Shown in pieces: positions 14,008 through 32,712 of a stretch of 64,000 bases of DNA. Source of the DNA: an uncultured Anaerovibrio sp. (GTDB lineage: Bacteria; Bacillota; Negativicutes; Selenomonadales; Selenomonadaceae); contig NZ_CAMYWM010000001.1 of assembly GCF_947302755.1 (NCBI RefSeq), positions 625 through 64,624 of the forward strand, read 5' to 3'. Every line of letters begins with the position of its first letter. The stretch's first letter is position 1. The notes under the pieces are model-generated. The model saw only the letters and a list, made by a program, of their open reading frames with translations. It did not search any database and was not told the DNA's origin. The position numbers were made by a program, and so were the translations under genes.

Positions 14008-15207
14008 ATGAAACTTCTTTTTGTGTGTACAACGGAATTGCAGCTTTTGACGGCTTTGAATTTAAAATATAACATCTATAAGGATGATATTGCAGATATA
14101 ATTGTAGATAATTATCATGGAGAAGAGGCTGCATTGGCAGACCGTATTAAACAAACCAATATATTCAGGAATGTTTGTTTTGTAAAATCCAATATAGAAG
14201 AAAAGACTATACACGCATATTTACGCGGTATTAGCGATGGCAAAACAAATATAACCTCCGGAGATGCTTTAGTGAATAGCTTCTTTTTTGTCTGGAGTCG
14301 TATAAAAACTGTTTTCAGTAAAGACAAGGGATGGCTAAGTGTTTTAGTTAATGATTTCTCCAAGCTGACTATGTCAGAGTATGATGCATTTTTTGGCTAC
14401 GGTGGGAAAAAAATCACAAAACATGTGCGTTTATTTTTAGATGAGATTAATCCATCCTGTAAGATTGTTCAGCTTGATGAGGGCGTAGGGGCTTATTGCG
14501 CCGGAAATGTTGGGGAAAATACTAAAATTGATTCTTGCGAGGTTTATGAGCCTGATTTGTTGCAGTTTACGGCTGTGACTAAAAAAGTTCCAGCAATAGA
14601 CAAAGAAGATATCACTTTTGTAAACATTGTCAATCAGATTTTTGAGTATGATGATACAAAAAATGTAGATTTTAGTGGGAATATTGTTTTTTTTGATCAG
14701 GGTGTTTCTAGTCCAATGCCAAAGTATTTAAGAAATGCCTCCTTCCTTACAAAATTGATATTTCATAATTCATATCGAAGGCACAAAGTTGAAGAAGATG
14801 TTTATGAAAGATGGAAGCAGATTACATTGGAAATATTAAAATCTGTAGGAGAAAAAAATATTTGGGTTAAAATGCATCCAAGAGCTTCTTCAGAGGCGTT
14901 ATCATTTTTTGCGGCTATGCCTAATGTTAATATAATGCCACAGTATAGAGTTCCGTGGGAAATTATGGCTCTAAATTCTAAAGTTGAGGATAGTGTTTTG
15001 ATGTCTTTTTTTTCCAGTTCGACCTGTCTGCATAATTCTGTTGTAAAATCGGCTGGCAAAAATATGATTATATTGCTATATGACATGGTTGATTTACCAA
15101 TAGAGCAAGTCGTGGTTGATTATTGTAAAGCACTAAGTAAACGCTTCAATAACAAAATTTTTATCCCAAAAGATAGGGAGGAATTCTTATCATTCTGGAA
15201 AAAATAA
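14008..15207 (+). CDS. Putative nonulosonic-acid (sialyl-type) transferase, paralog 1
   Basis: D-E-G at 14476-14484 (VQLDEGVGAY) and H-P at 14875-14880 (VKMHPR) match the two motifs shared by bacterial sialyltransferases. It aligns by eye with 28539-29786 (LFVC-T-L-L--AL, NSY--H). It lies next to NulO biosynthesis genes. Confidence 0.5.
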   Translation: MKLLFVCTTELQLLTALNLKYNIYKDDIADIIVDNYHGEEAALADRIKQTNIFRNVCFVKSNIEEKTIHAYLRGISDGKTNITSGDALVNSFFFVWSRIKTVFSKDKGWLSVLVNDFSKLTMSEYDAFFGYGGKKITKHVRLFLDEINPSCKIVQLDEGVGAYCAGNVGENTKIDSCEVYEPDLLQFTAVTKKVPAIDKEDITFVNIVNQIFEYDDTKNVDFSGNIVFFDQGVSSPMPKYLRNASFLTKLIFHNSYRRHKVEEDVYERWKQITLEILKSVGEKNIWVKMHPRASSEALSFFAAMPNVNIMPQYRVPWEIMALNSKVEDSVLMSFFSSSTCLHNSVVKSAGKNMIILLYDMVDLPIEQVVVDYCKALSKRFNNKIFIPKDREEFLSFWKK

Positions 15208-15344
15208 TGTACTCCACATAATAAATGTCCTCTAAATTTGTGATGTTGCAGATTATGGCAGAGGATTTTCAAGTAAGTACCTTTGGGTGTTATAATTTAA
15301 CTATGATACTTTGAACTAAAGTTGTTTAGTATTGGAGGAACACA

Positions 15345-16304
15345 ATGTATAATGTTGTAATAATCGGTGTAGGTGCTCTTGGAAGAAGACATCTTTCGTC
15401 TATATTAAATTCTACATTAGATCTTGATGTGTGTTGTTATGATATTAATGGGCATGCTTTGGAAGGTTTTGAGTGGGAGAATACATACAATAATAAAAAA
15501 CTAACTATGGTCAAAGCCTTCAAAGATTTGCCACAAACAATAGATTTCGCTTTATTTGCTATGACTGCCAATGGTCGGAGGGAAATGTTTGACCAGCTTA
15601 TTGAACACTGTACTGTTAAGAATATTTTATTCGAAAAAGTGTTATTCCAGAAGGTTGAAGATTATGAGCATGTTGCCAGTAAGCTAAATGAACTCCGTAT
15701 AAAGGCCTGGGTGAATTGTGCCAGACGACAGATGAATTGCTATCAGGATTTAAAGAAAGAGTTGGAATCTGCCAAGGAAATGCGAGTTAACATATCAGGC
15801 GGTGAGTGGGGATTGGGCTGCAATGCTATCCACGAAATCGATTTGATTGAGTTTTTATCCGGCAGTAGTGCGACAAAGATTGATAAGTTGAGTCTTCTGC
15901 CACAGATAGCTGATAGCAAACGTAAGGGATTCAAAGAAGTTTATGGTACCATATCAGGGCATAGCGGGAAATGTTCATATTTTTCCATTACCTGCATGAA
16001 AGAGACTCATGTTCCGAGTGTAATGACAATTTCCACTGATATTGGGCAGTACATAGTATTTGAAGAAAACCAAAAGCTGGTGTGCATGACAAAGAGTGGC
16101 GAGTACGATCTTATAGAAAGAGATTTTGTTATGCCATATCAGAGTCAGATGACGCAGTTTGTAATGGAAGATATTTTATTGACCGGAGAATCACGTTTGG
16201 CCAAGTACGATGTATCAAGTAGACTTCATTTGGAGTTTATTGAGCCGCTTATTAAATTCTTTAACAAAAATGGATGGGAGAGTAATTCATGTCCAATAAC
16301 TTAA
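15345..16304 (+). CDS. Gfo/Idh/MocA-like NAD(P) oxidoreductase
   Basis: RBS GGAGG upstream. N-terminal Rossmann VVIIGVGALGRRH and ILFEKV (EK-type motif). Family assignment is moderate. Confidence 0.6.
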   Translation: MYNVVIIGVGALGRRHLSSILNSTLDLDVCCYDINGHALEGFEWENTYNNKKLTMVKAFKDLPQTIDFALFAMTANGRREMFDQLIEHCTVKNILFEKVLFQKVEDYEHVASKLNELRIKAWVNCARRQMNCYQDLKKELESAKEMRVNISGGEWGLGCNAIHEIDLIEFLSGSSATKIDKLSLLPQIADSKRKGFKEVYGTISGHSGKCSYFSITCMKETHVPSVMTISTDIGQYIVFEENQKLVCMTKSGEYDLIERDFVMPYQSQMTQFVMEDILLTGESRLAKYDVSSRLHLEFIEPLIKFFNKNGWESNSCPIT

Positions 16305-17248
16305 AACAAGTTCTGATTGTAGGCACAGGAGGAATAGCAGGAGAGTATTGCAAGGTACTTCATGCTATTGGTATAGAGCCCGACGTTGTGGGAAGAAATG
16401 AAGATAAGGCAAAGAAGTTTGGGGAAAAACATGCTGTCACAGCCTTTGGCGGTGGTATCGATAATTATTTGGCAAATACTGGAAAAAAATATGATTATGC
16501 CATTGTTGCCACTGATGTTTTGAATCTTTGTACCAATACTTGTTCTTTGCTTGAGCATGGCATAAAAAAAATTTTCACAGAAAAACCAGCTGGTATGAAT
16601 AAGGCAGAGATTACCAAGATATGTCAGAATGCAGAAAAATATAATGCCAAGGTATATGTGGCATATAACAGAAGATTTTATGCTTCAACTACTAAAGCTA
16701 TAGATATTATACAGGAGGATGGTGGAGTACAATCATTCAATTTTGAATTTACCGAGTGGAGTCATGAAATTGAGTCATTGCCTACCCCGGCCGAAGTGAA
16801 AGAAGAATGGTTTTTGGCAAATTCTACGCATGTAGTGGATTTGGCTTTTTTCTTAGGAGGTGAGCCTGAAAAAATGGCCAGCTTTATTACTGGTGGCTTA
16901 TATTGGCACCCAAAAGGCTGTGTTTATTCCGGTGCCGGAATGACCAAGAATAAGGCACTTTTTAGTTATCAGGCTAACTGGGCAGCTCCGGGCCGTTGGG
17001 TAGTTGAAATATTAACTAGCAAACATAGATTGTATTTTAGCCCTATGGAGAAATTGTCCATTCAGGAATTGGGTTCTGTAGTTGTTAATCCTGTTGAGAT
17101 TGATGACAAGATAGACTTGGATTATAAACCAGGCTTTTATAAGGAGGTTGATTCCTTTATAAATGAAATTGATGATGGTAAAAAGAAGACAATTCAGGAT
17201 CAGCTCCGTTATATGGAATATTTTGACAAGATAGAAGGAAAAGCATAA
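16289..17248 (+). CDS. Gfo/Idh/MocA-like NAD(P) oxidoreductase
   Basis: Motifs VLIVGTGGIAGEY and IFTEKPAG (EKP motif). Overlaps the upstream gene by 16 nt. Confidence 0.65.
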   Translation: MSNNLKQVLIVGTGGIAGEYCKVLHAIGIEPDVVGRNEDKAKKFGEKHAVTAFGGGIDNYLANTGKKYDYAIVATDVLNLCTNTCSLLEHGIKKIFTEKPAGMNKAEITKICQNAEKYNAKVYVAYNRRFYASTTKAIDIIQEDGGVQSFNFEFTEWSHEIESLPTPAEVKEEWFLANSTHVVDLAFFLGGEPEKMASFITGGLYWHPKGCVYSGAGMTKNKALFSYQANWAAPGRWVVEILTSKHRLYFSPMEKLSIQELGSVVVNPVEIDDKIDLDYKPGFYKEVDSFINEIDDGKKKTIQDQLRYMEYFDKIEGKA

Positions 17249-17283
17249 TATCTATCAAGATTATTGTATTAGGATGATATAAC

Positions 17284-18581: not shown

Positions 18582-19766
18582 GTGAATGTGAGCAGATTTA
18601 TACCTTTATCTATACCGAATTTTGAAGGTAATGAACGGAAATATGTAGATGATGCCATTGATCAGGGGTGGGTATCCACTGGTGGTGCCTATATTACCAA
18701 GCTAGAGGAAAAGCTGGCAGGTTTTTTACATACAGATAATGTGGCAGCTTGTCAGAGCGGTACCGCTGCGCTGCATCTTTCAATGGTGGAGGCTGGTGTA
18801 CGGCCAGGCGATGTGGTTTTGGTTCCGCCACTTACCTTTATTGCAGCGGTAAATCCGGTAAAGTATCAGTTTGCTACTCCTGTATTTATCGATTGTGATG
18901 ACAGTTTTTGTATGTCTCCAGTAAAATTACAGGCATTTTGTGAAAATGAGTGCAGCTTTGATGGAAATCAGCTTCGTTATAATAATCAGCCAGTTAAGGC
19001 TGTAGTCGTGGTTCACATATTTGGCAATATGGCGGATATGGTGGCCATTATGGATATTGCTCAAAAGTATAACCTCAAAGTAGTTGAGGATGCTACCGAG
19101 GCCTTGGGTAGTAAATTTACAGCTGGTCCATTGGCGGGGCAATATGCTGGTACTATTGGTGATTTTGGCTGCTACTCCTTCAATGGGAATAAGATTATTA
19201 CCACTGGTGGCGGTGGTGCGGTTACGGCCAATAACACCAAAGTGGTAGACCATCTTCGTTATTTATCCACACAGGCAAAAAATGATGTGCATTATTACAT
19301 TCATAACGAGGTTGGTTATAACTATCGCATGACTAATCTTCAAGCCGCCTTGGGGGTGGCTCAGATGGAAGAACTGCCAGAGTTTATCCGCCGTAAGCAG
19401 GCTAATTTTCAGCTATACTGTGAATTGTTTGATAGTTTCGAGTTTGGTAAAATGGTAGGATTCCGCGATGATATTGATTCAAATATGTGGTTCTATTCTC
19501 TGGAAATAAATCGTGATAAGGTGAAAAACTCTATGCGGGATATCATTACGGCGTTGGAAAAATGTGGGATTCAGACTAGAGCTATATGGGGGCTTATTAA
19601 TGAGCAGATACCATATAAGAATGAGGTAACCTACGAGCTAGAAAAAGCACCGTATTATGCTAAGAGGATCTTAAATTTGCCGTCCAGTACCCAAATAACC
19701 AAAGCGGAAATTGAGTATGTGGTCGAGCAGGTAAAGAAAGTGTTAGGTGATTTTGCTCATGGATAA
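18582..19766 (+). CDS. DegT/DnrJ/EryC1-family sugar aminotransferase (LegC/PglE-like)
   Basis: Motifs CQSGTAALHL, FNGNKIITTGGGGAV (PLP lysine) and GYNYRMTNLQAALG. GTG start after AAGGAG. Confidence 0.85.
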   Translation: MNVSRFIPLSIPNFEGNERKYVDDAIDQGWVSTGGAYITKLEEKLAGFLHTDNVAACQSGTAALHLSMVEAGVRPGDVVLVPPLTFIAAVNPVKYQFATPVFIDCDDSFCMSPVKLQAFCENECSFDGNQLRYNNQPVKAVVVVHIFGNMADMVAIMDIAQKYNLKVVEDATEALGSKFTAGPLAGQYAGTIGDFGCYSFNGNKIITTGGGGAVTANNTKVVDHLRYLSTQAKNDVHYYIHNEVGYNYRMTNLQAALGVAQMEELPEFIRRKQANFQLYCELFDSFEFGKMVGFRDDIDSNMWFYSLEINRDKVKNSMRDIITALEKCGIQTRAIWGLINEQIPYKNEVTYELEKAPYYAKRILNLPSSTQITKAEIEYVVEQVKKVLGDFAHG

Positions 19767-20838
19767 GGAGCGAATGCAGGAGTTTTTAGCAAAATTGCCA
19801 TTGTCTGTAGTTGAGGCCATGGCAATGATAGATAGTCATGCCCACGATGCTGGATTGGTATTTATTGTTGATGAAATAAATAGACTGGTTGGCTGTATAA
19901 CAGATGGAGATATTCGTCGTTGGATATTAAAGGGCGGTGAAGTGAATGCTCCGGCAGAAAAAGTTATGTACAAAACGCCTATATATTTGTCCGAACGTGA
20001 TGCAGCCAATGCAAAGGCGGTATTGATTAAGGAAAGCATTACCGCCGTTCCCATTGTGGATGATGATAATAAAATTGTTGATATTGCGCTGTCACGAGAA
20101 GTAAGTAACATAAAAAACAGGAAAAAGAGGCTAAAAGGTGTTCCGGTGGTCATAATGGCTGGCGGTAAAGGTACTCGGCTTTATCCATATACCAAAATAT
20201 TGCCTAAGCCCCTTATTCCTATTGGAGACACCCCTATAGTGGAGCGAATCATTGATTGTTACGTGGAATATGGTATTGACAAATACTATATGACGGTTAA
20301 TTATAAAAAGGGAATGCTTCGATCCTATTTCAATGATTTGGCACCAAACTACGGCATAAAATTCGTGGAGGAGGATAAGCCATTAGGAACTGGTGGCAGC
20401 ATCAAGTTGATTGAAGATAAGTTTGACAGACCACTATTTGTTACCAATTGTGATGCACTTATTCGGGCAGATTACTCGGATATCTATGAACATCATATTA
20501 AGTGCGGGAATGATATTACAATGGTAGTTGCCCTGAAGAATATCACAGTGCCCTATGGTGTGGTGAATTCCGGGGAGAACGGCGAGTTACTCTCTATGGA
20601 AGAAAAACCTACCCTATCCTATTTCATTAATACAGGTATGTATATCATCAACCCTGAAACCATTGACTTGATACCGGATGCTACCATGTTCCACATGACG
20701 CATTTGGTGGAAAAGGTGATGAAACAGGGGGGCAAGGTTGGCACTTACCCTATAAGTGAGGATTCCTTCCTGGATATGGGTGAGTTTGAGGAAATGAAAC
20801 GAATGGAGCAGAAATTAAATATTATTTCTGATAAATGA
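19747..20838 (+). CDS. CBS-pair plus sugar-phosphate nucleotidyltransferase (PtmE-like); start uncertain (19747, 19759 or 19774)
   Basis: N-terminal CBS-like segments (LVGCITDGDIRRW, AVPIVDDDNKIVDI), then VVIMAGGKGTRLYPYTKILPKPLIPIG and EEDKPLGTGGS. Confidence 0.75.
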   Translation: MILLMDKERMQEFLAKLPLSVVEAMAMIDSHAHDAGLVFIVDEINRLVGCITDGDIRRWILKGGEVNAPAEKVMYKTPIYLSERDAANAKAVLIKESITAVPIVDDDNKIVDIALSREVSNIKNRKKRLKGVPVVIMAGGKGTRLYPYTKILPKPLIPIGDTPIVERIIDCYVEYGIDKYYMTVNYKKGMLRSYFNDLAPNYGIKFVEEDKPLGTGGSIKLIEDKFDRPLFVTNCDALIRADYSDIYEHHIKCGNDITMVVALKNITVPYGVVNSGENGELLSMEEKPTLSYFINTGMYIINPETIDLIPDATMFHMTHLVEKVMKQGGKVGTYPISEDSFLDMGEFEEMKRMEQKLNIISDK

Positions 20839-21410
20839 TTATGGAAGATATTGTGCTGGTTGGCTTTGGCGGTCATGCCAAAAGCGTGGCTGACTGTCTT
20901 GAACGGGAAGAAAAATATCATATTGTTGGTTATACAGATATGCAGGCAGCAACTTCCCAGTATGCATATTTGGGCACTGATGACAAGCTGCAGGCCATTT
21001 TTGACCGCGGTGTAAAAAATGCTGTTATTGGTATTGGCTATATGGGACGGGGAGCTATTCGGCAGCAGCTTTATAGTAAACTGAAAGAAATAGGTTTTGA
21101 GTTACCTGTTATCGTTGATCCATCTGCTATTGTTTCTGCCACAGCACTCATTGGCGAAGGTACTTTCGTGGGCAAGGGTGCCATAGTAAATGCCGAAGCA
21201 AAAATTGGGAAAATGACCATCATTAATACTAAAGCACTTGTGGAGCATGAGTGTGTAGTGGGGGATTTTGCCCATGTGGCTGTAGGAGCTGTGTTGTGCG
21301 GACAGGTGGAGATTGGCGAAGGAGCTTTTATCGGGGCGAATGCCACTGTTATTCAGTGCCGAAAAGTGGAGCCAAATACTGTAATTCCGGCAGGGGCAAC
21401 TATCAGATAA
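20835..21410 (+). CDS. NeuD/PglD-family sugar N-acetyltransferase (hexapeptide repeat)
   Basis: N-terminal VLVGFGGHAKSV, then left-handed beta-helix repeats (IGEGTFVGKGAIVNAEAKIG ... VEIGEGAFIGANATV). Confidence 0.8.
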   Translation: MIMEDIVLVGFGGHAKSVADCLEREEKYHIVGYTDMQAATSQYAYLGTDDKLQAIFDRGVKNAVIGIGYMGRGAIRQQLYSKLKEIGFELPVIVDPSAIVSATALIGEGTFVGKGAIVNAEAKIGKMTIINTKALVEHECVVGDFAHVAVGAVLCGQVEIGEGAFIGANATVIQCRKVEPNTVIPAGATIR

Positions 21411-21412: not shown

Positions 21413-22417
21413 ATGAAGGTTATGCAAAAGGTGTTGATTATTGCCGAGGCTGGCGTTAATCATAATGGAGATATAAATATTGCCAAAAGGCTGATAGATG
21501 AGGCTAAAAGAAGCGGAGCGGATATTGTGAAGTTTCAGACCTTTAATCCACAAAAGCTGGCTTCGAAATATGCGACAATGGCGGAATATCAAAAGGATAA
21601 TCTGGGCCGGGAAGAATCACAGGAAGCAATGCTCAGCAAGTTGACACTGAGTTGGGGCGAATATGTGGAGTTGGCGGAGTATTGTAAAAAGATAGGTATT
21701 AAATTCTTGTCTACTCCGTTTGAAAGCGAAAGTATTCATTTCTTGGATGATTTGCAGGATATATGGAAAATCCCGTCTGGGGAAATTACCAATTATCCTT
21801 ATCTGGTGGATATTGCCAAGACTGGAAAAGAGGTTATTCTTTCTACGGGAATGAGTAATATTGATGAGGTTAAAGGGGCCATTGATGTTTTGAAGAAACA
21901 TGGCGCAGGAAAAATCACGCTGCTCCATTGTACCACTAATTATCCAACTCCGATGGATGATGTTAATCTTAGGGCTATGCTGACGCTTGAAAAGGAATGT
22001 GGCTGTGCGGTAGGCTATTCTGACCATACGCAGGGAATAGAAGTCCCTATTGCGGCTGTGGCCATGGGGGCAACCGTAATTGAAAAGCATTTTACCCTTG
22101 ACAGGAATATGGATGGACCTGATCATAAGGCCAGCTTGGAGCCAGATGAGTTAAAGGCAATGGTTTCTGCCATTAGAAATGTGGAGAAGGCTATGGGAGA
22201 TGGCAATAAAGTACCGTCACCATCCGAAATGGCCAATATAGCTGTGGTCAGAAAGAGCATTATTGCAGCCAAGGACATAAGGGCCGGTGAAATTTTTTCT
22301 GAGGAAAATTTGACGACCAAACGGCCGGGAACAGGAATCAATCCAATGCGTTGGAATGAGGTTTTAGGGCAAAAAGCTAAACGGGATTTTGCAGAGGATG
22401 AACTGATAGAGTTATGA
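21413..22417 (+). CDS. Nonulosonic acid synthase (NeuB/LegI family)
   Basis: Motifs IIAEAGVNHNGD, GADIVKFQTF, KIPSGEITNYP, STGMS, LLHCTTNYP, GYSDHT, EKHFTLD, plus a C-terminal SAF-like domain. The internal ATG was chosen because the 21251 extension overlaps the acetyltransferase gene. Confidence 0.9.
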   Translation: MKVMQKVLIIAEAGVNHNGDINIAKRLIDEAKRSGADIVKFQTFNPQKLASKYATMAEYQKDNLGREESQEAMLSKLTLSWGEYVELAEYCKKIGIKFLSTPFESESIHFLDDLQDIWKIPSGEITNYPYLVDIAKTGKEVILSTGMSNIDEVKGAIDVLKKHGAGKITLLHCTTNYPTPMDDVNLRAMLTLEKECGCAVGYSDHTQGIEVPIAAVAMGATVIEKHFTLDRNMDGPDHKASLEPDELKAMVSAIRNVEKAMGDGNKVPSPSEMANIAVVRKSIIAAKDIRAGEIFSEENLTTKRPGTGINPMRWNEVLGQKAKRDFAEDELIEL

Positions 22418-23568: not shown

Positions 23569-23588
23569 ACGAAGAAAGGTTGAGTATT

Positions 23589-24584
23589 ATGAATGCGATT
23601 GTCGTCGGTCTTGGCTCAATGGGAAGACGAAGAGCCAGATTGCTACATGATTTAGACAAAACTATAAAAATAATTGGTGTGGATATGCAAGATTCCCGCA
23701 GAAAACAAGCTGAGGATGAATTGGGGATTGTAACTTGTGAGACGATTGAAAAGGCATGTAAGGAATATCAACCAGATATGGCATTTGTTTCCACCTCGCC
23801 GTTATCACATGCAGCAATTATAAATGAGTGTCTGGAGAATAATCTCCATGTTTTCACTGAGTTAAACTTAGTTACTAATGGCTATGACGAGAATGTTAAG
23901 CTGGCCCAAACCAAAGGAAAAAAATTGTTTTTGTCGTCGACGTTCCTTTATAGAAAAGAGATTCAATATATAAAGCAAGCCGTTTCTTCTGCTGGATGCC
24001 CGCTTTCGTATATGTATCATGCCGGGCAATATTTACCAGATTGGCATCCTTGGGAAAGCTACAAGGACTTTTTCATAGGAAAAAAAGAGACAAACGGTTG
24101 TCGCGAGTTTATGGCAATCGAATTTCCATGGTTGATTGATGTTTTTGGCAATATAAAGTCTATTAAATCGATTAAAGGAAATGACAGCAGTCTGGATATT
24201 GATTTTGCCGATATATACCACATTATGATAGAACATGAGACTGGTCATAAAGGAATGATTACTGTTGATGTCGTTTCGCGGAAGGCTGTCCGCAATATGG
24301 AAATATCAGGTGAAAAGCTCTATTTAACTTGGCATGGAACCCCGGATTCCCTGAAGGTTTATGACTATGACAACAAGCTGGATAAGGATATAGTTCTATA
24401 TGATTCAGTAGAAAACAGAGCTGGATATAGTGCATTTATCATTGAAGATGCATATAGAAGTGAAATTGAGAATTTCCTGAATGTGGTTGCAGGGAAAGAA
24501 AAAGCCAAATACTCGTTTGAACAGGACAAAAGAGTTCTTTCAATAATAGATGAGATTGAAGAAAGTGAGGATAACTTAAAATGA
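23589..24584 (+). CDS. Gfo/Idh/MocA-like oxidoreductase, intact paralog of 26706-27687
   Basis: Motifs MNAIVVGLGSMGRRRA and YHAGQYLPDWHPWES, shared almost verbatim with the split gene downstream. RBS GAAAGG lies 9 nt upstream of the ATG at 23589. Confidence 0.6.
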   Translation: MNAIVVGLGSMGRRRARLLHDLDKTIKIIGVDMQDSRRKQAEDELGIVTCETIEKACKEYQPDMAFVSTSPLSHAAIINECLENNLHVFTELNLVTNGYDENVKLAQTKGKKLFLSSTFLYRKEIQYIKQAVSSAGCPLSYMYHAGQYLPDWHPWESYKDFFIGKKETNGCREFMAIEFPWLIDVFGNIKSIKSIKGNDSSLDIDFADIYHIMIEHETGHKGMITVDVVSRKAVRNMEISGEKLYLTWHGTPDSLKVYDYDNKLDKDIVLYDSVENRAGYSAFIIEDAYRSEIENFLNVVAGKEKAKYSFEQDKRVLSIIDEIEESEDNLK

Positions 24585-25882: not shown

Positions 25883-25992
25883 TTTTTATTGCGCATTAAG
25901 GCGGCACCCTAATTGTAGATATGGTATATTATTATCTGCTATTAGCGAGGTATAGAAAGGTGGAGAATGTATCCGCCGCAGATACATAATTG

Positions 25993-26709
25993 ATGTATAA
26001 GGGAAAAAAGATTTTGGCGGTTGTGACGGCTCGGGGGGGCTCCAAAGGACTTCCTGGCAAAAATATACGGCCAATGCACGGTAAACCACTGATACAGTGG
26101 ACTATTAAATCCGCTCATAATAGTAAGTATTTGGATAAGTTGTTCATTTCCACAGATAGCCTGGAAATTGCTGATGTTTGTGAAATGGCGGGTGCACCGG
26201 TTCCGGAACTGAGACCGGAGGAACTGGCCCAGGACAAGTCATCATCGATGGATGTGCTGGTATATACACTGGAATTGCTGGAAAAACAAGGAGAAAAATA
26301 TGACTATTTGATTCTGCTGGAACCGACCTCACCTCTTCGTAAAGAACAGGATATAGACAAGATGATCGAGCTGGCGGTAGATAATCCTGAGGCTGATGGG
26401 GTTATTTCTGTGGGCCGGGTCCACTTGGAGCATCCGTCTATTGTGAAAAAAATAGACGAAAATGGGTTTATTTGTCCGTATTTTGAGCATGTACCAACCT
26501 TTTATCAAAGACAGGAAGAAGATGCGGCATATTTCCCATATGGGGTAGGTTATCTGGTTCGGGTGGACAGGTTTAAAGAAACTCATGCTGTCTACATGGA
26601 AAAAATGTTGCCATATTATATCGAAAGATGGCAGAACTATGAGATAGACGATATCTATGATTTTGAGTGTATTGAAAAAATAATGGAGCTGGAGGAACAG
26701 TATAAATGA
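25993..26709 (+). CDS. CMP-nonulosonic acid synthetase (NeuA/LegF family cytidylyltransferase)
   Basis: Motif ILAVVTARGGSKGLPGKNIRPMHGKPLI. About 239 aa. Confidence 0.85.
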   Translation: MYKGKKILAVVTARGGSKGLPGKNIRPMHGKPLIQWTIKSAHNSKYLDKLFISTDSLEIADVCEMAGAPVPELRPEELAQDKSSSMDVLVYTLELLEKQGEKYDYLILLEPTSPLRKEQDIDKMIELAVDNPEADGVISVGRVHLEHPSIVKKIDENGFICPYFEHVPTFYQRQEEDAAYFPYGVGYLVRVDRFKETHAVYMEKMLPYYIERWQNYEIDDIYDFECIEKIMELEEQYK

Positions 26710-27687
26710 GTTGTTATTATGTTAAAGGCCTGGGCTCAATGGGTAAGCGTCGTGTGCGTTGCCTTATGGCACTGGGCGTAAAGCCAGAGAATATCTGGGG
26801 AAATGATATAAGACAGGATCGGTGTGATGAAGCCAAGGAAAAGTATGGTATCAATATAGTGGATGATGAATCAGAGCTGGATTTTGACAAGATTGATGCT
26901 GTTATTGTATCCTTGCCACCGGATAAGCATAAAATTGGTGTTGATATAGCTGTTAAATACCATAAGCCTGTTTTCGTGGAAGCCAGTGTGGTTCTTGAGG
27001 AAAAACGATAGCAATGGCATTTTTGTTGCGCCTTCCTGCACATTTGTTTTCCATCCTATGGTTAAGGAAATAAAGAAGATCGTTGAAACTGGCAAATTGG
27101 GCAAGATGTGCAATTTCTCATACCATAGTGGCCAGTATTTACCTGATTGGCACCCATGGGAAAGTGTAAATGATTTTTATGTAGGCAATCGGTTGACTGG
27201 TGGGGCTAGAGAAATAGTTCCTTATGAATTAACCTGGCTGACAGATGTTTTTGGGTTCCCAAAAGAAATTAAGGGATATTTCCGTAAGACAGGCGATATT
27301 GGCTGTGATATAGAGGACAGCTATGCAAGCACTATCGACTATGGTGATTCCATAGGTACCCTGATTGTCGATGTAATGAGCCGTTATCCAGCCAGAAACC
27401 TTATTATCAATTTCCAGAATGGCCAGATTCAGTGGAAATGGGATGAGGAGCGTCTGACTGTATATAATGCAGCGGATGGAACTACTACATATATAAAACA
27501 GGAAAAGCAGCCGCATGAAGAAGGCTATGCTGATATGATAGGCGAGCAGATGTATATCGATGAAATAGCGGCTTTCCTCGCCGGTACAAAAGATGCGAAA
27601 GCTTATCCTAGCACGGTAGATAAGGATATACAGGTCCTCAGGCTTTTGAATTCAATTGAGGATTCAGATGGAGGCTTTGACAGATAA
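26706..27687 (+). pseudogene. Gfo/Idh/MocA-like oxidoreductase split by a +1 frame change at an A5 run (27001-27005)
   Basis: The 101-aa ORF (26706-27011) matches the N-terminus of the 23589 paralog (KGLGSMGKRR). The 233-aa ORF (26986-27687) matches its C-terminal two thirds (YHSGQYLPDWHPWES). Removing one A would join them as ..VVLEENDSNGIF.. Confidence 0.75.
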
Positions 27688-27689
27688 AA

Positions 27690-28448
27690 ATGAAAGTTGC
27701 TCTTGCGCAATTCGATATAATTTGGGAGGATAAGGAATCTAATATTGCCAACGCTGAATCTCTTATTGCTGCTGCTGCAAACGATGGCTCAGACATTATA
27801 TTTTTTCCTGAAATGAGCTTTACTGGGTTTTCCATGAATACGCGTGTTACAGGGGAGAAGAACAGCTACACTGTTGACAGGATAAGCAATATTGCGAAAC
27901 AAAATGATATAGCTGTTGGTTTTGGTTGGGTGAGATGGCATGACAATAAATGTGAGAATGTTTATACTCTGTTAGATTCTTCAGGTAAAATAGTATCAGA
28001 ATATGTTAAGATGCATCCTTTTTCCTATTCCGGGGAAGATAAGTATTTTGCCGGCGGAGAGAAAGTAATGGTTGCTGATTTTAAGGGGATACCCTTCTCG
28101 ACATTCATTTGTTATGATTTGAGATTCCCTGAAATATTCCGGGCAGTTGCAAAGGATGTGCATATGATAATCGTGCCTGCATGTTGGCCTTCCAAACGTG
28201 CTGAACATTGGAAAACCTTGCTTAGGGCACGGGCAATTGAAAATCAGGTGTATATTCTGGGAATAAATTGTCAGGGAAATATCGGTGGGCTGTATTACTC
28301 CGGTGACAGTTGCGTTATTACCCCTAATGGGGATATAGCCGTATCAATGTCGAATGAGTGTGGATTATTAACTTATAACTTGATGGATGATGTTGAAGAG
28401 TATAGAAAGGGATTTCCGGTTCTCAAGGATATGAAGCCAATCCCTTAA
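27690..28448 (+). CDS. Carbon-nitrogen hydrolase (nitrilase superfamily)
   Basis: Glu-Lys-Cys triad context: FFPEMSFTGF, YVKMHPF, ICYDLRFPE. Confidence 0.8.
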   Translation: MKVALAQFDIIWEDKESNIANAESLIAAAANDGSDIIFFPEMSFTGFSMNTRVTGEKNSYTVDRISNIAKQNDIAVGFGWVRWHDNKCENVYTLLDSSGKIVSEYVKMHPFSYSGEDKYFAGGEKVMVADFKGIPFSTFICYDLRFPEIFRAVAKDVHMIIVPACWPSKRAEHWKTLLRARAIENQVYILGINCQGNIGGLYYSGDSCVITPNGDIAVSMSNECGLLTYNLMDDVEEYRKGFPVLKDMKPIP

Positions 28449-29786: not shown

Positions 29787-29787
29787 T

Positions 29788-31212
29788 ATGAATTTTAATT
29801 CTTTGGAATATGCTATATTTTTGCCAATAGTATTTTGCTTGTATTGGCTTATGCCTCATCGTTTTCGATGGGCATTTTTATTGTTGGCGAGCTACTATTT
29901 CTATATGAGCTGGAATCCGCAATATATTGTGTTGATATTGGGGACTACAGCAATTTCATTTTTTGCGGCATTGTTGATAGAAAAATGTGACACAGTCCGG
30001 GCAAAGAAGATGGTTTTGGCGGGAGCTGTGTTCGTTTGTCTGGGTGTACTGTTTTGTTTTAAATATTTTAATTTCATGTCAGCTTCTTTGGTTGAGCTGT
30101 GTTCCCTTTTGGCCATAAATCTTCATCCCATAACTCTAAATGTGCTGTTGCCAGTTGGAATATCCTTCTACACATTTCAGACCATGGGATATGTTATAGA
30201 TGTTTACCGGGGGAATGTGAAGGCAGAGAGACATTTTGGCGAGTATGCGGCATTTATATCCTTCTTTCCCCAGTTGGTAGCTGGTCCTATTGAGCGGACA
30301 GCCAATCTTCTGCCTCAAATAAAAACAGTCAAAAAATTTGATTATGATGAAGCTGCCTATGGCCTTCGGCTCATGGCTTGGGGGTTCTTCAAAAAAATAG
30401 TTATAGCTGATAATGCTGCTATTGTAGTAGATAGCGTTTATTCATCTTTGGATAGATGCACGGGATTTGATCTGATACTTGCAGTGCTGTTTTTTACGAT
30501 GCAGATATATTGTGATTTTTCCGGGTACTCGGATATTGCTATTGGTACTGCCAGATTGTTGGGCATAAAGCTTATGACAAATTTCAAAAGCCCGTATTTT
30601 TCCGGCAGTTTAAAAGAATTTTGGAGCAGATGGCATATATCCCTTTCCACCTGGTTTAGAGATTATTTGTATATTCCTTTGGGGGGCAACAGGTGCTCCA
30701 AATTCAGGCACAACATGAATATCATGATAACCTTTCTTATAAGTGGCCTGTGGCATGGGGCAAATTGGACATTTGTACTATGGGGAGGAATTCATGGATT
30801 CATTCAGGTTGTTGAAAATGTTCTTGGTCTGAATAAAATTACGAAATCAAAATTGCAGCATATTATTTCGGTTGTTATAATTTTTTTAATTTGCAATATA
30901 GCCTGGGTATTCTTTCGTTCTAAATCAATTACAGATGCTTTTTATATTCTTGGCAATATTATTTCTGCCAACGGTGGTATTGATTGGTATATACGAAGCG
31001 GTATAGAGATAGACGAGAGTACCATTTATCACATATTGATACCTGTGGTGGCGATGATGGTATATGATTTTATATCCTTGAAACGGGATGTGATAAAATG
31101 GGTTGGTTCACAAAAAATGCTGGTACGTTGGTGCCTGTATTTTGTAATAATATTTTGGACCATACTTATGCTGCCTCTGGAAAACTCCGGCTTTATATAT
31201 TTCCAATTTTAA
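29788..31212 (+). CDS. MBOAT-family membrane O-acyltransferase (AlgI/DltB-like)
   Basis: Multi-TM protein with WHISLSTWFRDYLYIPLGGNR and LISGLWHGANW (conserved His). Confidence 0.85.
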   Translation: MNFNSLEYAIFLPIVFCLYWLMPHRFRWAFLLLASYYFYMSWNPQYIVLILGTTAISFFAALLIEKCDTVRAKKMVLAGAVFVCLGVLFCFKYFNFMSASLVELCSLLAINLHPITLNVLLPVGISFYTFQTMGYVIDVYRGNVKAERHFGEYAAFISFFPQLVAGPIERTANLLPQIKTVKKFDYDEAAYGLRLMAWGFFKKIVIADNAAIVVDSVYSSLDRCTGFDLILAVLFFTMQIYCDFSGYSDIAIGTARLLGIKLMTNFKSPYFSGSLKEFWSRWHISLSTWFRDYLYIPLGGNRCSKFRHNMNIMITFLISGLWHGANWTFVLWGGIHGFIQVVENVLGLNKITKSKLQHIISVVIIFLICNIAWVFFRSKSITDAFYILGNIISANGGIDWYIRSGIEIDESTIYHILIPVVAMMVYDFISLKRDVIKWVGSQKMLVRWCLYFVIIFWTILMLPLENSGFIYFQF

Positions 31213-31224
31213 TGGGGTATTATT

Positions 31225-32301
31225 GTGAGAACAATATTAATAAAAATGATAATACTGGCATTGACAGTATATAGCGTGGTTATATCAGTTAATTATTTTG
31301 TTGACCCTGCCAATTTATATCATGAGGGCACAGTTACCAAATTGGTGGATTGTCTCAATGATGGCAAAAATGTTAAAATTCCCGCAAATATTGATGAGGG
31401 GGTATTTCAGGAAAAAAGAATTGCAACTATGACCTGGAATCCAGAGACAGTAATAATTGGCTCAAGCCATGTTATGTATATGCCCTTTGATGATGGCAGT
31501 ATGGTATACAATGCAGGTATGTCCGGAGCATATTTAGGAGATTATTATGCTTTAACCGGACTGCTGCAATATTATGATAAAATGCCCAAGAAAATAATAA
31601 TAGGCGTTGATCCCTGGACCTTTATGCGCGGCAGTCTCGATGGGAAACATCCTTCATTGCATAGGTATGCGGAATACATGAAAAAAAACATTGATGGCTC
31701 CCAGGATACATACTATGGAGGAAATTATATTGATGATAAGTTAAAGGAACTGATTTCATTATCATATTTTCAGTCTTCCATTGCATATGCCAGAAAAAAT
31801 CTTTTTAAGGCAGAAGATGATGTAGAGACTGTTTCTGATGATCAGATTGGAGATGATGTCAAGATTATCGTGGATGGAAGGCGTGTTCCATCAGTTAAAA
31901 ATTTTCTTACCCAGAAAGAAATTGATGAGGAAATTTTAAAGCTGTTGAATAAAGGTACTATGTATCAAATGGGAACAGGCTTTAAAGAGGTTCAGCATGA
32001 TAATATTGCAGATTTTGAAAAATTGTTGCAATATTTACAGGCCAATGGGGTGGAGGTAAGCATTTATTTACCAGTATGGCATCCGAAGATTTACAGTTTT
32101 TTCTGTGAAAGTGAAGCATTTTCCGGAGTGAAAAAAATTGAGGACACCATACGCAAAATTGGTTATGGGTACCAGATTCCCGTTCATGGTGGATATGATC
32201 CAAGGGATTGTGGTATTACAGAAAACGACTTTATGGATTATCTACACCTGAAGCCGGAGAAGATGAAGGAAAACTATGAACTGATATTGGACAGTAAGTA
32301 G
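31225..32301 (+). CDS. Membrane-anchored extracytoplasmic partner of the MBOAT (DltD/AlgX-like role inferred)
   Basis: Single N-terminal TM segment (ILIKMIILALTVYSVVISV), then YFVDPANLYHEG and VIIGSSHVMYM, which is reminiscent of the DltD GSSE region. GTG start. Assigned mainly from position. Confidence 0.4.
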   Translation: MRTILIKMIILALTVYSVVISVNYFVDPANLYHEGTVTKLVDCLNDGKNVKIPANIDEGVFQEKRIATMTWNPETVIIGSSHVMYMPFDDGSMVYNAGMSGAYLGDYYALTGLLQYYDKMPKKIIIGVDPWTFMRGSLDGKHPSLHRYAEYMKKNIDGSQDTYYGGNYIDDKLKELISLSYFQSSIAYARKNLFKAEDDVETVSDDQIGDDVKIIVDGRRVPSVKNFLTQKEIDEEILKLLNKGTMYQMGTGFKEVQHDNIADFEKLLQYLQANGVEVSIYLPVWHPKIYSFFCESEAFSGVKKIEDTIRKIGYGYQIPVHGGYDPRDCGITENDFMDYLHLKPEKMKENYELILDSK

Positions 32302-32338
32302 TTTTTGGGCCACGAAGACAGCTGTTTGCTTTTTACTG

Positions 32339-32712
32339 AATAGTTACAAAATTGGCTTTATTTTTGTGGTGGGAAAGTTGAGTTATTATCAAATGGCCAT
32401 TAAGTATATCACTGATAGGGTTGGCGATATACAATTATTTGTTTTTTCCAATGATATTCCTTGGGCGAGGAAAATATAAAAACAGCTCAGGAAATCCATT
32501 TTGTGGACAACAACACGGAAGAAAAGGGCTATGAGGATATGCGGTTAATGAGCCTTTGCCGGCATCACATTATTGCCAACAGCTCCTTTAGCTGGTGGGG
32601 TGCCTGGCTGGGAACGGCTGGGGATAAGATTGTGGCAGCCCCTAAAAAGTGGTTGGCTAATGAACAATCTGGCCATGAGGATGTTGTGCCCAGTGGATGG
32701 ATTAAAATGTAA
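32339..32712 (+). pseudogene. Remnant of a GT11 alpha-1,2-fucosyltransferase (5'-truncated and frameshifted)
   Basis: C-terminal GT11 signature EDMRLMSLCRHHIIANSSFSWWGAWLG..KIVAAPKKW in the 32461 frame. The preceding part (YYQMAIKYITDRVGDIQLFVFSNDIPWAR) is in another frame that stops at 32477-32479. The N-terminal roughly 150 aa are absent. Confidence 0.65.

Follow-up and report, generated by a model that had tools for sequence, protein, structure and literature searches.

Positions 14008-32712 of the window (the whole stretch of 64,000 nucleotides that was analysed) hold a strain-specific, horizontally acquired cassette at the end of an LPS-core operon. Judged by homology, its six core enzymes and a PtmE-like nucleotidyltransferase form a full set for a "bacterial sialic acid" of the legionaminic acid (Leg) type, and the route is neither plain Neu5Ac nor Pse. 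The explanation as a whole, i.e., a hot-spot allele with a Leg-type pathway, accessory modification, LOS-type transfer and late O-acylation, was given a probability of about 60%.

The host is a rumen-type Anaerovibrio of the Selenomonadaceae (its pyk is 96% identical to that of A. lipolyticus), which bears out the diderm Firmicute proposed in the first-pass annotation. The 18.7 kb block is co-directional, with all genes on the + strand, and lies between the heptose/LPS-core operon on the left and pyk, a conserved housekeeping gene, on the right. The flanking features were as follows:

5162-8627, three GT9 heptosyltransferases, upstream core genes
8646-9653, PfkB kinase, upstream core gene
9657-10658, epimerase, upstream core gene
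10661-11170, HAD phosphatase, upstream core gene
13056..13973, + strand, DUF535 (VirK/YbjX-like), Pfam PF04393, 258.8 bits
32904..34322, + strand, pyk (pyruvate kinase), right boundary, TIGR01064, 574 bits

A GT1-group glycosyltransferase (Pfam Glycos_transf_1) and then a GT2 were found between the HAD phosphatase and DUF535. DUF535 homologues with 75-85% identity were present in A. lipolyticus DSM 3074, RM50 and the MAG RUI081. DUF535 is the last conserved gene of the operon and the left boundary of the variable cassette, which contained:

14008..15207, + strand, transferase A, divergent GT38-like, putative CMP-nonulosonate transferase
15345..16304, + strand, GFO-1, GFO/IDH/MocA-type NAD(P) oxidoreductase, PF01408, 23.7 bits (at threshold)
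16289..17248, + strand, GFO-2, GFO/IDH/MocA-type oxidoreductase, PF01408, 31.2 bits
17284..18492, + strand, LegB-like NDP-GlcNAc 4,6-dehydratase (402 aa, soluble CapD-type), Polysacc_synt_2 PF02719, 129 bits
18582..19766, + strand, LegC-family DegT aminotransferase, TIGR04181, 434.7 bits (cut-off 420)
19747..20838, + strand, PtmE-like CBS-domain sugar-1-phosphate nucleotidyltransferase, Pfam CBS and NTP_transferase
20835..21410, + strand, NeuD/PglD/LegH-type N-acetyltransferase, TIGR03570, 178.8 bits (cut-off 160.8), PglD_N and Hexapep
about 21413..22417, + strand, NeuB-family nonulosonate synthase, LegI-like, TIGR03569, 500 bits
22414..23568, + strand, hydrolysing NDP-sugar 2-epimerase, NeuC/LegG-like, TIGR03568, 400 bits (cut-off 236)
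23580..24584, + strand, GFO-3, GFO/IDH/MocA oxidoreductase, PF01408, 46.6 bits
24581..25882, + strand, class-III PLP aminotransferase (PRK06209-type, "GSA-aminomutase-like"), NF004856, 585.9 bits (cut-off 486)
25990..26709, + strand, CMP-nonulosonate synthetase, LegF/NeuA-like, PF02348, 93.6 bits
26706..27687, + strand, GFO-4, oxidoreductase pseudogene (ORFs 26706-27011, 101 aa, and 26986-27687, 233 aa)
27690..28448, + strand, carbon-nitrogen hydrolase, YafV/omega-amidase-like, PF00795, 142 bits
28539..29786, + strand, transferase B, paralogue of transferase A, 466 bits against the family HMM
29788..31212, + strand, MBOAT membrane O-acyltransferase (DltB/AlgI-like), PF03062, 93 bits
31225..32301, + strand, 358-aa membrane-anchored MBOAT partner, N-terminal hydrophobic anchor and "IIGSSH" motif
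32461..32712, + strand, GT11 (fucosyltransferase-family) 5'-truncated remnant, 83 aa, PF01531 positions 221-295 of 298

Re-analysis reproduced the coordinates and gene order of the first-pass annotation. The genes it listed were all present, but its inventory lacked seven ORFs of the block (six genes): the four GFO/IDH/MocA oxidoreductases (one of them broken), the PRK06209-type class-III aminotransferase and the omega-amidase-like CN-hydrolase. A second nonulosonate pathway, of the Pse type, was seen at 60.4-64 kb of the same window.

The AT-richer composition previously noticed by eye was real. Both GC and GC3 were lower in the island (0.394 and 0.382) than in the upstream core genes (0.469 and 0.524) and in the stretch from pyk to pfk (0.510 and 0.623), and per-gene GC3 differed between island and flanks with p = 2.4e-6 (Mann-Whitney). 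Comparison of related genomes, which had been suggested as a check on whether the island varies, revealed a different DUF535-pyk interval in every Anaerovibrio genome compared. This interval held a GT4 and unknown ORFs in DSM 3074, a different Leg set in LB2005, GT2s and an intact GT11 in JC8, the transferase only in RM50 and RUI081, and PseG and PseI in RUG13183. The interval is thus hypervariable among Anaerovibrio, with Leg-type genes, Pse-type genes, non-nonulosonate glycosyltransferases, or the transferase only. Island proteins were 59-82% identical to those of Eubacterium ruminantium, while for pyk the identity to the Lachnospiraceae gene product was just 48%. The island had neither a tRNA gene nor a mobility gene, as expected if replacement ran via flanking homology. 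Composition, variability and these identities uphold the horizontal acquisition proposed earlier; the picture of an island "grafted" onto the core locus is better worded as one allele of a cassette-exchange hot spot. Such an allele would have been gained by recombination at the 3' end of the heptose/LPS-core operon, and much of it is common to rumen Clostridia.

Homologues of all core enzymes were present in the Leg cluster of E. coli O161, which has Leg5Ac7Ala in its O antigen (PMC7685785). The LegB-like dehydratase was 80% identical to its E. ruminantium homologue and 43% to the O161 one; the CMP-synthetase was 69% identical to that of E. ruminantium, and its counterparts in E. coli O161 and Sulfitobacter were each 35% identical. 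The PtmE-like protein shared 80% identity with its homologue in A. lipolyticus LB2005 and 33% with that in E. coli O161; a Sulfitobacter plasmid cassette has a gene in the PtmE position whose product was 31% identical. Other assignments were rejected: PseC for the LegC-family aminotransferase (only 215 bits, cut-off 423), PseI for NeuB (307 bits vs 500 for TIGR03569), wecB for the epimerase (only 115 bits vs 400 for TIGR03568) and PseF for the CMP-synthetase (134 bits, cut-off 205.7).

NeuB shared 57% identity with the E. coli O161 synthase. In a small neighbour-joining tree of 12 sequences, which does not separate Leg from its 4- or 8-epimers, it clustered with O161 and Leg-context synthases (bootstrap 100), apart from the Neu5Ac synthases of E. 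coli O24 and N. meningitidis and from PseI. The NeuB phylogeny that had been called for therefore gave the Leg clade, not Neu or Pse. With the enzyme set complete and the aminotransferase above the NCBIfam cut-off for the LegC family, the earlier proposal of a Leg-type route stands.

By homology, the PtmE-like nucleotidyltransferase would supply NDP-GlcN(Ac). In Campylobacter, the sugar at the PtmE step is GDP-linked. Dehydration by LegB, C4 amination by LegC and acetylation of the new amine by NeuD/LegH would follow. NeuC/LegG would then remove the nucleotide with 2-epimerisation, NeuB/LegI would condense the product with PEP, and the cytidylyltransferase would make the CMP-sugar.

The conserved oxidoreductase/aminotransferase/amidase module that was previously overlooked makes plain Leg5Ac7Ac an improbable product. 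The arrangement GFO-aminotransferase-CMP-synthetase-GFO(-CN hydrolase) recurs beside Leg genes in E. ruminantium and a MAG, with 59-82% identity in rumen Clostridia. GFO-3 shared 59% identity with its counterpart in the E. ruminantium module and was paralogous to GFO-4 (33-34%). The class-III aminotransferase had relatives in at least 120 clusters at 78-100% identity, several named Lachnospiraceae or Eubacterium ruminantium, and among its relatives in the PDB are class-III enzymes that aminate ketones and sugars. It was 30% identical to a hemL-like fragment at window positions 1-888; housekeeping HemL was rejected for it (TIGR00713, 213 bits vs cut-off 527). The CN-hydrolase scored 151 bits against NF007757 (PRK10438 amidohydrolase), under the cut-off of 249, and had a 60% identical homologue in the equivalent position of a MAG locus (L087). 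The related Leg clusters that were examined had neither GFO-1 nor GFO-2, and a PDB search by sequence gave no relative of GFO-1.

The extra genes could instead supply the hexosamine precursor (GlcN-phosphate or NDP-GlcN) of an ordinary Leg5Ac7Ac, a possible but rather doubtful reading. Schoenhofen and colleagues reportedly placed Campylobacter PtmF (a GFO) and PtmA in the first, building-block segment (GlcN-6-P precursor supply) in 2009, which would give the accessory module a different role. That ptmA belongs to the first pathway segment is also stated in PMC4481668. GFO-3 is a distant relative of the PtmF/ElaA-position oxidoreductase: aligned over its full length with the GFO from a PtmE-GFO-CMP-synthetase-SDR cassette, it was 23% identical (E 3e-22). 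However, a 2026 structural and genetic study assigned epimerisation of CMP-Leg5Ac7Ac at C8 to the GFO-CMP-synthetase-SDR cassette; ElaA (a GFO), whose gene adjoins that of the CMP-synthetase ElaB, oxidises C8 of this compound (PMC13656337). In the window it is likewise the CMP-synthetase, not PtmE, that is flanked by module genes.

Modification of the nonulosonate is thus the preferred role. By analogy with ElaA-ElaB-ElaC, the module that surrounds the CMP-synthetase (GFO-3, class-III aminotransferase, GFO-4 and omega-amidase-like hydrolase) would begin by oxidising a secondary hydroxyl of the (CMP-)nonulosonate. The oxidised position may then be transaminated, in a glutamine-dependent reaction pulled forward by the amidase, or re-reduced to give an epimer. 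In the window strain, GFO-4 is inactivated by a 14-nt deletion near 27005, seen as a 14-nt gap in the nucleotide alignment; tblastn with intact 329-aa homologues changes frame there at residues 100/103.

The two flanking paralogs described earlier as carrying sialyltransferase motifs did so: transferase A had DEG (157-159) and HP (290-291), and transferase B had EEG and HP. They were 28% identical over their full length (403 columns, E 8e-51). DEG was invariant in 18/18 family members and HP occurred in 15/18. Transferase A had no Pfam match at the default threshold, and neither protein reached the threshold of PF07388 (polysialyltransferase; E 0.0021 for transferase A), which more distant relatives of transferase A do pass (transitive homology). 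The AF2 model of transferase A (pLDDT 88.7) best matched the Neisseria LOS sialyltransferase NST (GT52, E 4.8e-7) and Pasteurella GT80 sialyltransferases, although TM-scores to solved sialyltransferases were low (0.3-0.45). Motifs, fold and transitive PF07388 homology agree in making transferases A and B divergent GT38-like GT-B enzymes of sialyltransferase fold. Family members adjoin DUF535 and/or NeuB, CMP-synthetase, PseB or PseC genes in independent contigs. RM50, RUI081 and locus L092 contain the family with no nonulosonate synthesis genes in the DUF535-pyk interval or fetched locus, so the family may not be nonulosonate-specific, or genes elsewhere are used.

Gene position, together with the finding of no Wzx, Wzy, ABC transporter, initiating transferase or Maf-type gene in the island, suggests the LPS core or LOS as the acceptor. 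The pathway as such is independent of LPS, since a monoderm, E. ruminantium, has almost identical biosynthesis genes. Since most biosynthesis genes are closest to those of this bacterium without LPS, and flagellin glycosylation with Leg is well documented (PMC4481668), the sugar might decorate flagellin or another surface protein, as in Campylobacter, Plesiomonas and Clostridium. This is quite improbable, as the window has no Maf/DUF115-type flagellin glycosyltransferase or flagellar gene, the best structural match of the sialyltransferase-fold enzymes is LOS-specific, and a transferase A-family gene lies directly 3' of the LPS-core gene DUF535 in several other genomes.

Entry into a capsule or O-antigen repeat unit, with transferases A and B acting on undecaprenyl-linked intermediates, was considered unlikely. 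A separate, complete-looking Wzx-type cluster (initiating transferase, Wza-like, Wzz-like, flippase) lies 10 kb downstream at 42.7-64 kb, and Leg, Neu and Pse sugars do occur in E. coli O-antigen repeat units. In locus L094 a family member adjoins PseB and PseC after pfk, a position that corresponds in the window to a HipA-like pair and the Wzx-type cluster. This cluster, however, has its own Pse-type pathway (PseB, 77% identity, PseC, PseF and PseG) and is separated from the Leg island by six housekeeping genes, whereas the island is contiguous with the core operon. Under LOS-type transfer, transferases A and B would work at the cytoplasmic face and attach the sugar to acceptors in the outer core of lipid A-core; the result would be a lipooligosaccharide-type cap.

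The exported glycan may then be O-acylated by the MBOAT protein (158 bits against TIGR04091, DltB; cut-off 375) and its partner. The 358-aa partner, which matched no family searched and nothing in the PDB, may have a DltD/AlgJ-like role; A. lipolyticus DSM 3074 has a homologue with 49% identity, also placed after that of the MBOAT. As described before, the block ends in this pair and a dead GT11, a C-terminal remnant just before the GC-richer pyk. The remnant was 74% identical to an intact 297-aa GT11 of Anaerovibrio sp. JC8, its GC3 (0.524) matched the native flanks, and it is a relic of an earlier cassette.

The frameshifting deletion in GFO-4 and the GT11 stump indicate that part of the island is decaying. 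That the whole is a non-functional remnant and the strain makes no nonulosonate is very unlikely: all seven genes of the core pathway, the two transferase genes and the MBOAT pair are undisrupted ORFs of full length with tight or overlapping junctions (-20 to +137 nt), and the GT11 stump stands outside the Leg pathway. The island is of the expected kind for surface sugars; besides, it carries two transferases from a family not yet studied and an uncharacterised module for sugar modification.

The Leg-type island at 14008-32712 formed a co-directional block on the plus strand in the ORF listing and family scans. Every gene named in the first-pass annotation was recovered, but seven ORFs (six genes) inside the block had been overlooked. 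The island and its flanks were organized as follows (GFO, GFO/IDH/MocA oxidoreductase; Leg, legionaminic acid; Pse, pseudaminic acid; NulO, nonulosonic acid):

Upstream, heptose/LPS-core operon: three GT9 heptosyltransferases
Upstream, same operon: PfkB kinase, NAD epimerase and HAD phosphatase (hldE/hldD/gmhB-type set)
Upstream, same operon: GT1-group glycosyltransferase (Pfam Glycos_transf_1), GT2, then DUF535/VirK gene ending at 13973
14008-15207, plus: transferase A
15345-16304, plus: GFO-1
16289-17248, plus: GFO-2
Between GFO-2 and GFO-3, plus: LegB/CapD-type NDP-GlcNAc 4,6-dehydratase, 402 aa; PF02719 (Polysacc_synt_2), 129 bits
Same interval, plus: LegC-family DegT aminotransferase; TIGR04181, 434.7 bits (cut-off 420); PseC model, 215 bits (cut-off 423)
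Same interval, plus: PtmE-like nucleotidyltransferase; CBS and NTP_transferase domains
Same interval, plus: NeuD/PglD N-acetyltransferase; TIGR03570, 178.8 bits (cut-off 160.8)
Same interval, plus: NeuB; TIGR03569, 500 bits; PseI model, 307
Same interval, plus: hydrolysing NeuC-type 2-epimerase; TIGR03568, 400 bits (cut-off 236)
23580-24584, plus: GFO-3
24581-25882, plus: class-III aminotransferase
25990-26709, plus: CMP-nonulosonate synthetase (CTP_transf_3 cytidylyltransferase); PF02348, 93.6 bits
26706-27687, plus: GFO-4
27690-28448, plus: carbon-nitrogen (CN) hydrolase
28539-29786, plus: transferase B
After transferase B, plus: MBOAT and its 358-aa partner
32461-32712, plus: GT11 stump, 83 aa; profile positions 221-295 of 298
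32904-34322: pyk
Beyond pyk: alpha/beta hydrolase, RNase R, SmpB and pfk

The AT-richness of the block, originally judged by eye, held up on computation. GC content and mean GC3 were 0.394 and 0.382 in the island, 0.469 and 0.524 in the upstream core genes, and 0.510 and 0.623 in the pyk-to-pfk block (per-gene GC3 difference, Mann-Whitney p = 2.4e-6). The host had been correctly called a diderm Firmicute: pyk shared 96% identity with its counterparts in Anaerovibrio lipolyticus DSM 3074, in LB2005 and in Anaerovibrio sp. RM50, and 95% with that of JC8; the figure was 64-77% among the Selenomonadaceae-type matches (Selenomonas, Propionispira, Megamonas) and approximately 48% in comparison with Lachnospiraceae. 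Scans of the window for promoters (84 vs. 65 +/- 10 in shuffled sequence) and terminators (22 vs. 14.6 +/- 3.8) were not usefully above background and gave no operon boundaries.

Within the core operon, two PfkB-family kinases (3847-4857 and 8646-9653) were separated by a CTP_transf_like gene (4888-5364), which suggests either two sugar kinases or a split HldE whose kinase and adenylyltransferase are encoded separately. No Pfam match was obtained for ORFs 1234-2163 and 2315-3853. The window began with the C-terminal fragment of a GC-rich class-III aminotransferase (1-888, cut off at the window start), probably the housekeeping hemL.

The island's synthesis genes were assigned to the predicted Leg route on the basis of the LegC-family aminotransferase, a NeuC-type enzyme in place of a PseG-type hydrolase, and the NeuB tree; this class is taken to include Leg epimers and derivatives, which these data do not separate. 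For a chemically anchored comparison, three O-antigen clusters of E. coli were used: O161, O24, and one pseB-pseI cluster. The O161 O antigen contains Leg5Ac7Ala and that of O24 contains Neu5Ac (PMC7685785). Each core enzyme of the island was matched in the O161 cluster at 33-57% identity: LegB 43%, LegC 37%, PtmE 33%, NeuB 57%, NeuC 38%, and CMP-synthetase 35%. A NeuB phylogeny had been proposed as a check, and a small one (neighbor-joining, 12 sequences, 200 bootstraps) placed the window NeuB, the O161 synthase and four other Leg-context synthases in one clade with support of 100. The O24 Neu5Ac synthase, Neisseria meningitidis NeuB and the PseI clade fell outside it. Pairwise, the window NeuB was 57% identical to O161, 53% to O24 (Neu5Ac), 34% to N. 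meningitidis NeuB, and 35% to PseI. The aminotransferase, the NeuC-type enzyme and this tree together decided the refuting condition named in the first-pass annotation (clustering with plain Neu5Ac enzymes) in favor of the Leg route.

A plain Neu5Ac pathway was ruled out by the dehydratase, LegC and acetyltransferase together with the NeuB clade. A Pse pathway was likewise ruled out for the island, where PseG and PseH were absent and the PseI and PseC scores lay under their cut-offs; the sole PseG homologue of the window was found at 63375-63995.

The additional oxidoreductases and aminotransferase make a derivative likely as the island's sugar, rather than plain Leg. Two unrelated GFO genes, GFO-1 and GFO-2, lay between transferase A and the dehydratase; in sequence searches of the PDB, GFO-1 returned only noise and GFO-2 only Rossmann domains of KtrA. 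GFO-3 and the class-III aminotransferase lay between NeuC and the CMP-synthetase, and GFO-4 followed by the CN hydrolase lay after it, so that GFO-3 and GFO-4 bracketed the aminotransferase and CMP-synthetase. GFO-4 was split into ORFs of 101 aa and 233 aa, and intact 329-aa homologues aligned across the frame switch. Nucleotide alignment with the Eubacterium ruminantium and metagenome-assembled genome (MAG) homologues located a 14-nt deletion near 27005, outside any homopolymer, which ruled out a sequencing slip. GFO-4 is a pseudogene, the operon around it being otherwise intact.

The island's class-III aminotransferase was of the NF004856/PRK06209 type (586 bits, cut-off 486). Housekeeping HemL was excluded for this gene, which scored under the hemL cut-off and was 30% identical to the fragment at 1-888. 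At least 120 database clusters matched it at 78-100% identity, several named Lachnospiraceae or E. ruminantium, and its solved relatives included ketone and sugar aminotransferases. The order GFO, aminotransferase, CMP-synthetase, GFO (329 aa) recurred in E. ruminantium, adjoining LegB, LegC, PtmE, NeuD, NeuB and NeuC homologues, and in one MAG, adjoining PtmE, NeuD, NeuB and NeuC homologues, with a CN hydrolase after the second GFO as in the window. An Agrobacterium plasmid homologue of the aminotransferase stood in another polysaccharide context without NeuB and was uninformative. In the O-antigen cluster of Legionella pneumophila serogroup 6/12 a class-III aminotransferase lies next to a nonulosonate cytidylyltransferase (PMC3694923).

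The arrangement resembles the ElaABC system of Acinetobacter baumannii KL49 and Vibrio vulnificus, in which a GFO also stands beside the CMP-synthetase inside a Leg cluster. In a 2026 study, ElaA (GFO), ElaB (CMP-synthetase) and ElaC (SDR) carried out C8 epimerization of CMP-Leg5Ac7Ac through an 8-keto intermediate (PMC13656337). A Sulfitobacter plasmid had the canonical PtmE-GFO-CMP-synthetase-SDR arrangement. GFO-3 was a distant full-length homologue of this cassette-type GFO, at only approximately 23% identity (E 3e-22). Family scans detected no adh_short/SDR gene (ElaC/PtmA partner) among the island ORFs, which instead included the PLP aminotransferase and the amidase. The E. coli O161 cluster, with homologues of LegB, LegC, PtmE, NeuB, NeuC and CMP-synthetase and a NeuB of the same clade, differed in lacking the GFO, class-III aminotransferase or amidase module found in the island.

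From the missing SDR, the presence of the PLP aminotransferase and an omega-amidase-like hydrolase, and the aminotransferase's solved relatives, we infer that the module would oxidize a secondary hydroxyl of the (CMP-)nonulosonate and that the oxidized position would then be transaminated, possibly in a glutamine-dependent manner. By analogy with ElaABC, this suggests amination instead of, or besides, epimerization. The rival explanation is that the module supplies precursors. The Campylobacter jejuni/coli CMP-Leg pathway (LegB/C/H/G/I/F and PtmE/F/A) has the same core enzyme families, including the CBS-nucleotidyltransferase PtmE, and in both systems a GFO-family oxidoreductase adjoins the CMP-synthetase. 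In that pathway, as reportedly set out by Schoenhofen in 2009, PtmA and PtmF act in precursor supply. Another source for the precursor-supply statements is PMC4481668. Campylobacter, however, has an SDR (PtmA), whereas the island has the class-III aminotransferase, the second GFO paralogue, the CN hydrolase and two more GFO genes.

A fuller version of the amination proposal is speculative and, in our estimate, improbable as a whole: that the module, very widespread in rumen and gut Firmicutes, makes an undescribed 5,7,8- (or 4,5,7-) triamino Leg derivative via CMP-Leg oxidation and glutamine-dependent transamination, and that in diderm Firmicutes a hitherto unrecognized GT38-related transferase subfamily caps the LPS core with it.

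Transferases A and B were paralogues (28% identity, E 8e-51) and the only two members of their family in the window. Their identity, motifs and GT-B model agreed with the earlier description of two flanking paralogues with sialyltransferase motifs. Neither had a Pfam match at the default threshold. PF07388 (GT38 polysialyltransferase) matched transferase A at 18.1 bits (E 0.0021), under the gathering threshold of 23.3 bits, and did not match transferase B. Distant relatives of 360-390 aa passed the PF07388 threshold at 34-60 bits and provided the only link to that family, a transitive one. Transferase A contained the motifs DEG and HP, and transferase B EEG and HP; in an 18-sequence family alignment the D/E-E-G motif was invariant (18/18) and HP was present in 15.

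The AlphaFold model of transferase A (pLDDT 88.7) had a GT-B two-Rossmann fold. In Foldseek it matched best NST, a sialyltransferase of Neisseria specific for LOS (GT52; 2yk5, E 4.8e-7), and PmST1-type Pasteurella GT80 sialyltransferases, each with a probability of 1.00 yet with low TM-scores (0.3-0.45), as would be expected of two-domain enzymes in different conformations. A sequence search of the PDB with transferase A returned only noise. The two enzymes share the GT-B fold and the D/E-D/E-G and HP motifs with GT38 (PF07388), Neisseria Lst/NST GT52 and Pasteurella GT80, but were approximately 10% identical to the solved enzymes and under the PF07388 cut-off. An exhaustive profile search returned 50 representatives at E <= 1e-30, among 1.84 billion, and 908 at E <= 1e-10. 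Taken together, the sub-threshold PF07388 scores, motifs, fold and transitive relatives indicate a divergent small subfamily linked to GT38, whose members A and B are non-members of GT38 by Pfam's own criterion.

Genomic context suggests that A and B act on a CMP-activated nonulosonate, a putative role. An uncultured relative had the order hldE-hldD-gmhB ... GT2-GT8-DUF535, family member, cytidylyltransferase/PseG-like fusion, NeuB-like gene. On three other contigs, respectively, DUF535 was followed by two tandem family members, two family members bracketed NeuB, cytidylyltransferase, PseB and PseC genes, and a family member lay immediately ahead of PseB and PseC. There were counter-examples, with a family member but no synthesis gene in the DUF535-pyk interval (RM50, RUI081) or in the fetched locus (L092).

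Two further proteins were of note. In P0142 (716 aa), a polysaccharide pyruvyl-transferase domain was naturally fused to a transferase-family domain (34 bits on PF07388). In L081, a relative's locus, a NeuB-family synthase (13050-14120) lay beside a cytidylyltransferase/PseG-like fusion; in the small tree it belonged to none of the Leg, Neu5Ac and PseI clades, it had 'GVNYYD' in place of the usual 'NHNG', and may be a different ulosonic-acid synthase.

The island contained no flippase, polymerase, ABC exporter, initiating transferase or Maf-type gene, and directly adjoined the core operon. Apart from it, at 42.7-64 kb, lay a Wzx-type polysaccharide cluster that ended in its own Pse-type genes:

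60420-61412: PseB, 77% identical to E. coli PseB
approximately 61474-62595: PseC, 47% identical to the E. coli enzyme
62649-63317: PseF, 45% identical to the E. coli enzyme
63375-63995: PseG, partial, 37% identical to the E. coli enzyme; the Pse set runs off the window end

With this second set at 60420-64000, the strain seems to have genes for sugars of the Leg as well as the Pse type inside 64 kb.

These features, together with the LOS sialyltransferase fold match, make an LOS-type outer-core cap, built on lipid A-core at the cytoplasmic face, the best-supported putative acceptor (probability roughly 0.55-0.6). Flagellin is an alternative, being the target of the Campylobacter pathway, which proceeds there via Maf proteins of the type absent from the island. 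The other alternative is a Wzx polymer. The E. coli O161 sugar belongs to a Wzx/Wzy repeat-unit O antigen, with a FemAB-type alanyl transferase; in the window the Wzx-type cluster is separate and has its own Pse genes, and the island is without export or polymerase genes. In V. vulnificus the Leg cluster sits in an LPS-core locus (PMC13656337).

The Wzx-type cluster proper (42705-60199) had a low GC content (0.30-0.45) and contained a Bac_transf initiating transferase, a Wza-like exporter, a Wzz/GNVR protein, WecG/TagA, a UDP-sugar dehydrogenase, DegT, a pyruvyl transferase, an FrhB-like Fe-S protein, GT2, a TupA ATP-grasp protein, WbsX, and a Polysacc_synt flippase. The cluster probably specifies an O antigen or a capsule, and probably constitutes a second variable region. 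Between pfk and this cluster was a very AT-rich gene pair (40375-41990, GC 0.32-0.34) encoding a HipA_C-like kinase and a protein with a HipA N-terminal coupling domain and a HIRAN domain. The pair was missing from all related Anaerovibrio loci compared and may be a toxin-antitoxin or defense insertion.

The DUF535-pyk interval differed in every Anaerovibrio genome compared, which answered the suggestion that the locus be checked for variability in related genomes:

DSM 3074: GT4 and small unknown ORFs
LB2005 (within the 10 kb covered): a Leg-type set differing from the island's, an opposite-strand family transferase, and GT4
JC8: GT2-FkbM, GT2, intact GT11, AAA ATPase
RM50 and RUI081: transferase only
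RUG13183: PseG, PseI, and class-III aminotransferase (31% identical)

By closest homologue the island was a mosaic. LegB (80%), LegC (71%), NeuB (67%), the aminotransferase (81%), the CMP-synthetase (69%) and GFO-4 (72-82%) were closest to E. ruminantium; PtmE (80%), NeuD (81%) and NeuC (77%) were closest to LB2005. The atypical composition of the island, and its variable occurrence between flanks that close relatives conserve, bore out the proposed horizontal acquisition. No tRNA or tmRNA was found in the window, and no integrase, transposase or IS family among the island ORFs in the family scans, which fits allelic replacement through the conserved flanks, as at O-antigen/LOS loci; by analogy, the island's origin is consistent with such replacement. 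Campylobacter LOS and enterobacterial/Acinetobacter outer-core or O-antigen hot spots likewise have conserved flanks, alternating low-GC cassettes, remnants of earlier alleles and no mobility genes; the island differs in its Negativicute host and in its flanks, DUF535 and pyk.

The right end of the island held such a remnant. As first described, an MBOAT pair and a dead GT11 gene preceded pyk. Set against the glycan O-acylation systems DltB/DltD, AlgI/AlgJ and PatA/PatB, the MBOAT scored 93 bits on PF03062 and was DltB-like at a sub-threshold level; its 358-aa partner had an N-terminal anchor and a GSSH motif, no family or PDB match, and a single-sequence AlphaFold model (pLDDT 36.5) unusable for fold search. 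At this locus JC8 has an intact GT11 of 297 aa, with which the stump shares 74% identity. The stump's GC3 was native-like (0.524, against 0.38 in the rest of the island), and it is therefore a relic of the cassette that preceded the Leg island there.

In relatives, the variable region of the LPS core also contained AAA_15/AAA_21 ATPase genes: in loci L081-L084 (5519-7273 in L081) the ATPase was paired with DUF4276, and in L003 (5580-7429) it was followed by an ORF without a Pfam match. These had the look of defense-type pairs, and defense genes and glycan cassettes appear to share the LPS-core hot spot. The best BLASTp match of a Campylobacter coli LOS class XII gene is an A. lipolyticus hypothetical protein at 65% identity (bioRxiv 10.1101/050328), a hint that Anaerovibrio and Campylobacter LOS loci have exchanged genes.

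Overall, there are precedents for Leg clusters, for their integration in the LPS core (V. vulnificus; PMC13656337) and for variable glycan hot spots. Our literature search found no paper joining nonulosonic acids with Negativicutes, and the Selenomonas and Veillonella matches were incidental only. New here are the host group (Negativicutes) for a NulO cassette, a module of aminotransferase, second GFO and amidase that apparently stands in for the SDR partner, and the putative GT38-related transferase subfamily tied to DUF535.

NulO on LPS/LOS shapes immune recognition, phage adsorption and serum/complement interactions in proteobacterial pathogens; to our knowledge, almost nothing is known of it in diderm Firmicutes. 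The locus is a variable-antigen site in Selenomonadaceae, with DUF535/pyk flanks and alternating Leg-type, Pse-type and non-NulO alleles, and documents NulO gene transfer between rumen Clostridia and Negativicutes. The very common oxidoreductase/aminotransferase/amidase module around the CMP-synthetase poses a testable question. The small sialyltransferase-fold family offers candidate legionaminic/pseudaminic acid transferases, which are wanted for glycoengineering. If amino-NulO synthesis and GT38-related capping were both true, Negativicutes would gain a hypervariable, sialic-acid-like LOS epitope.
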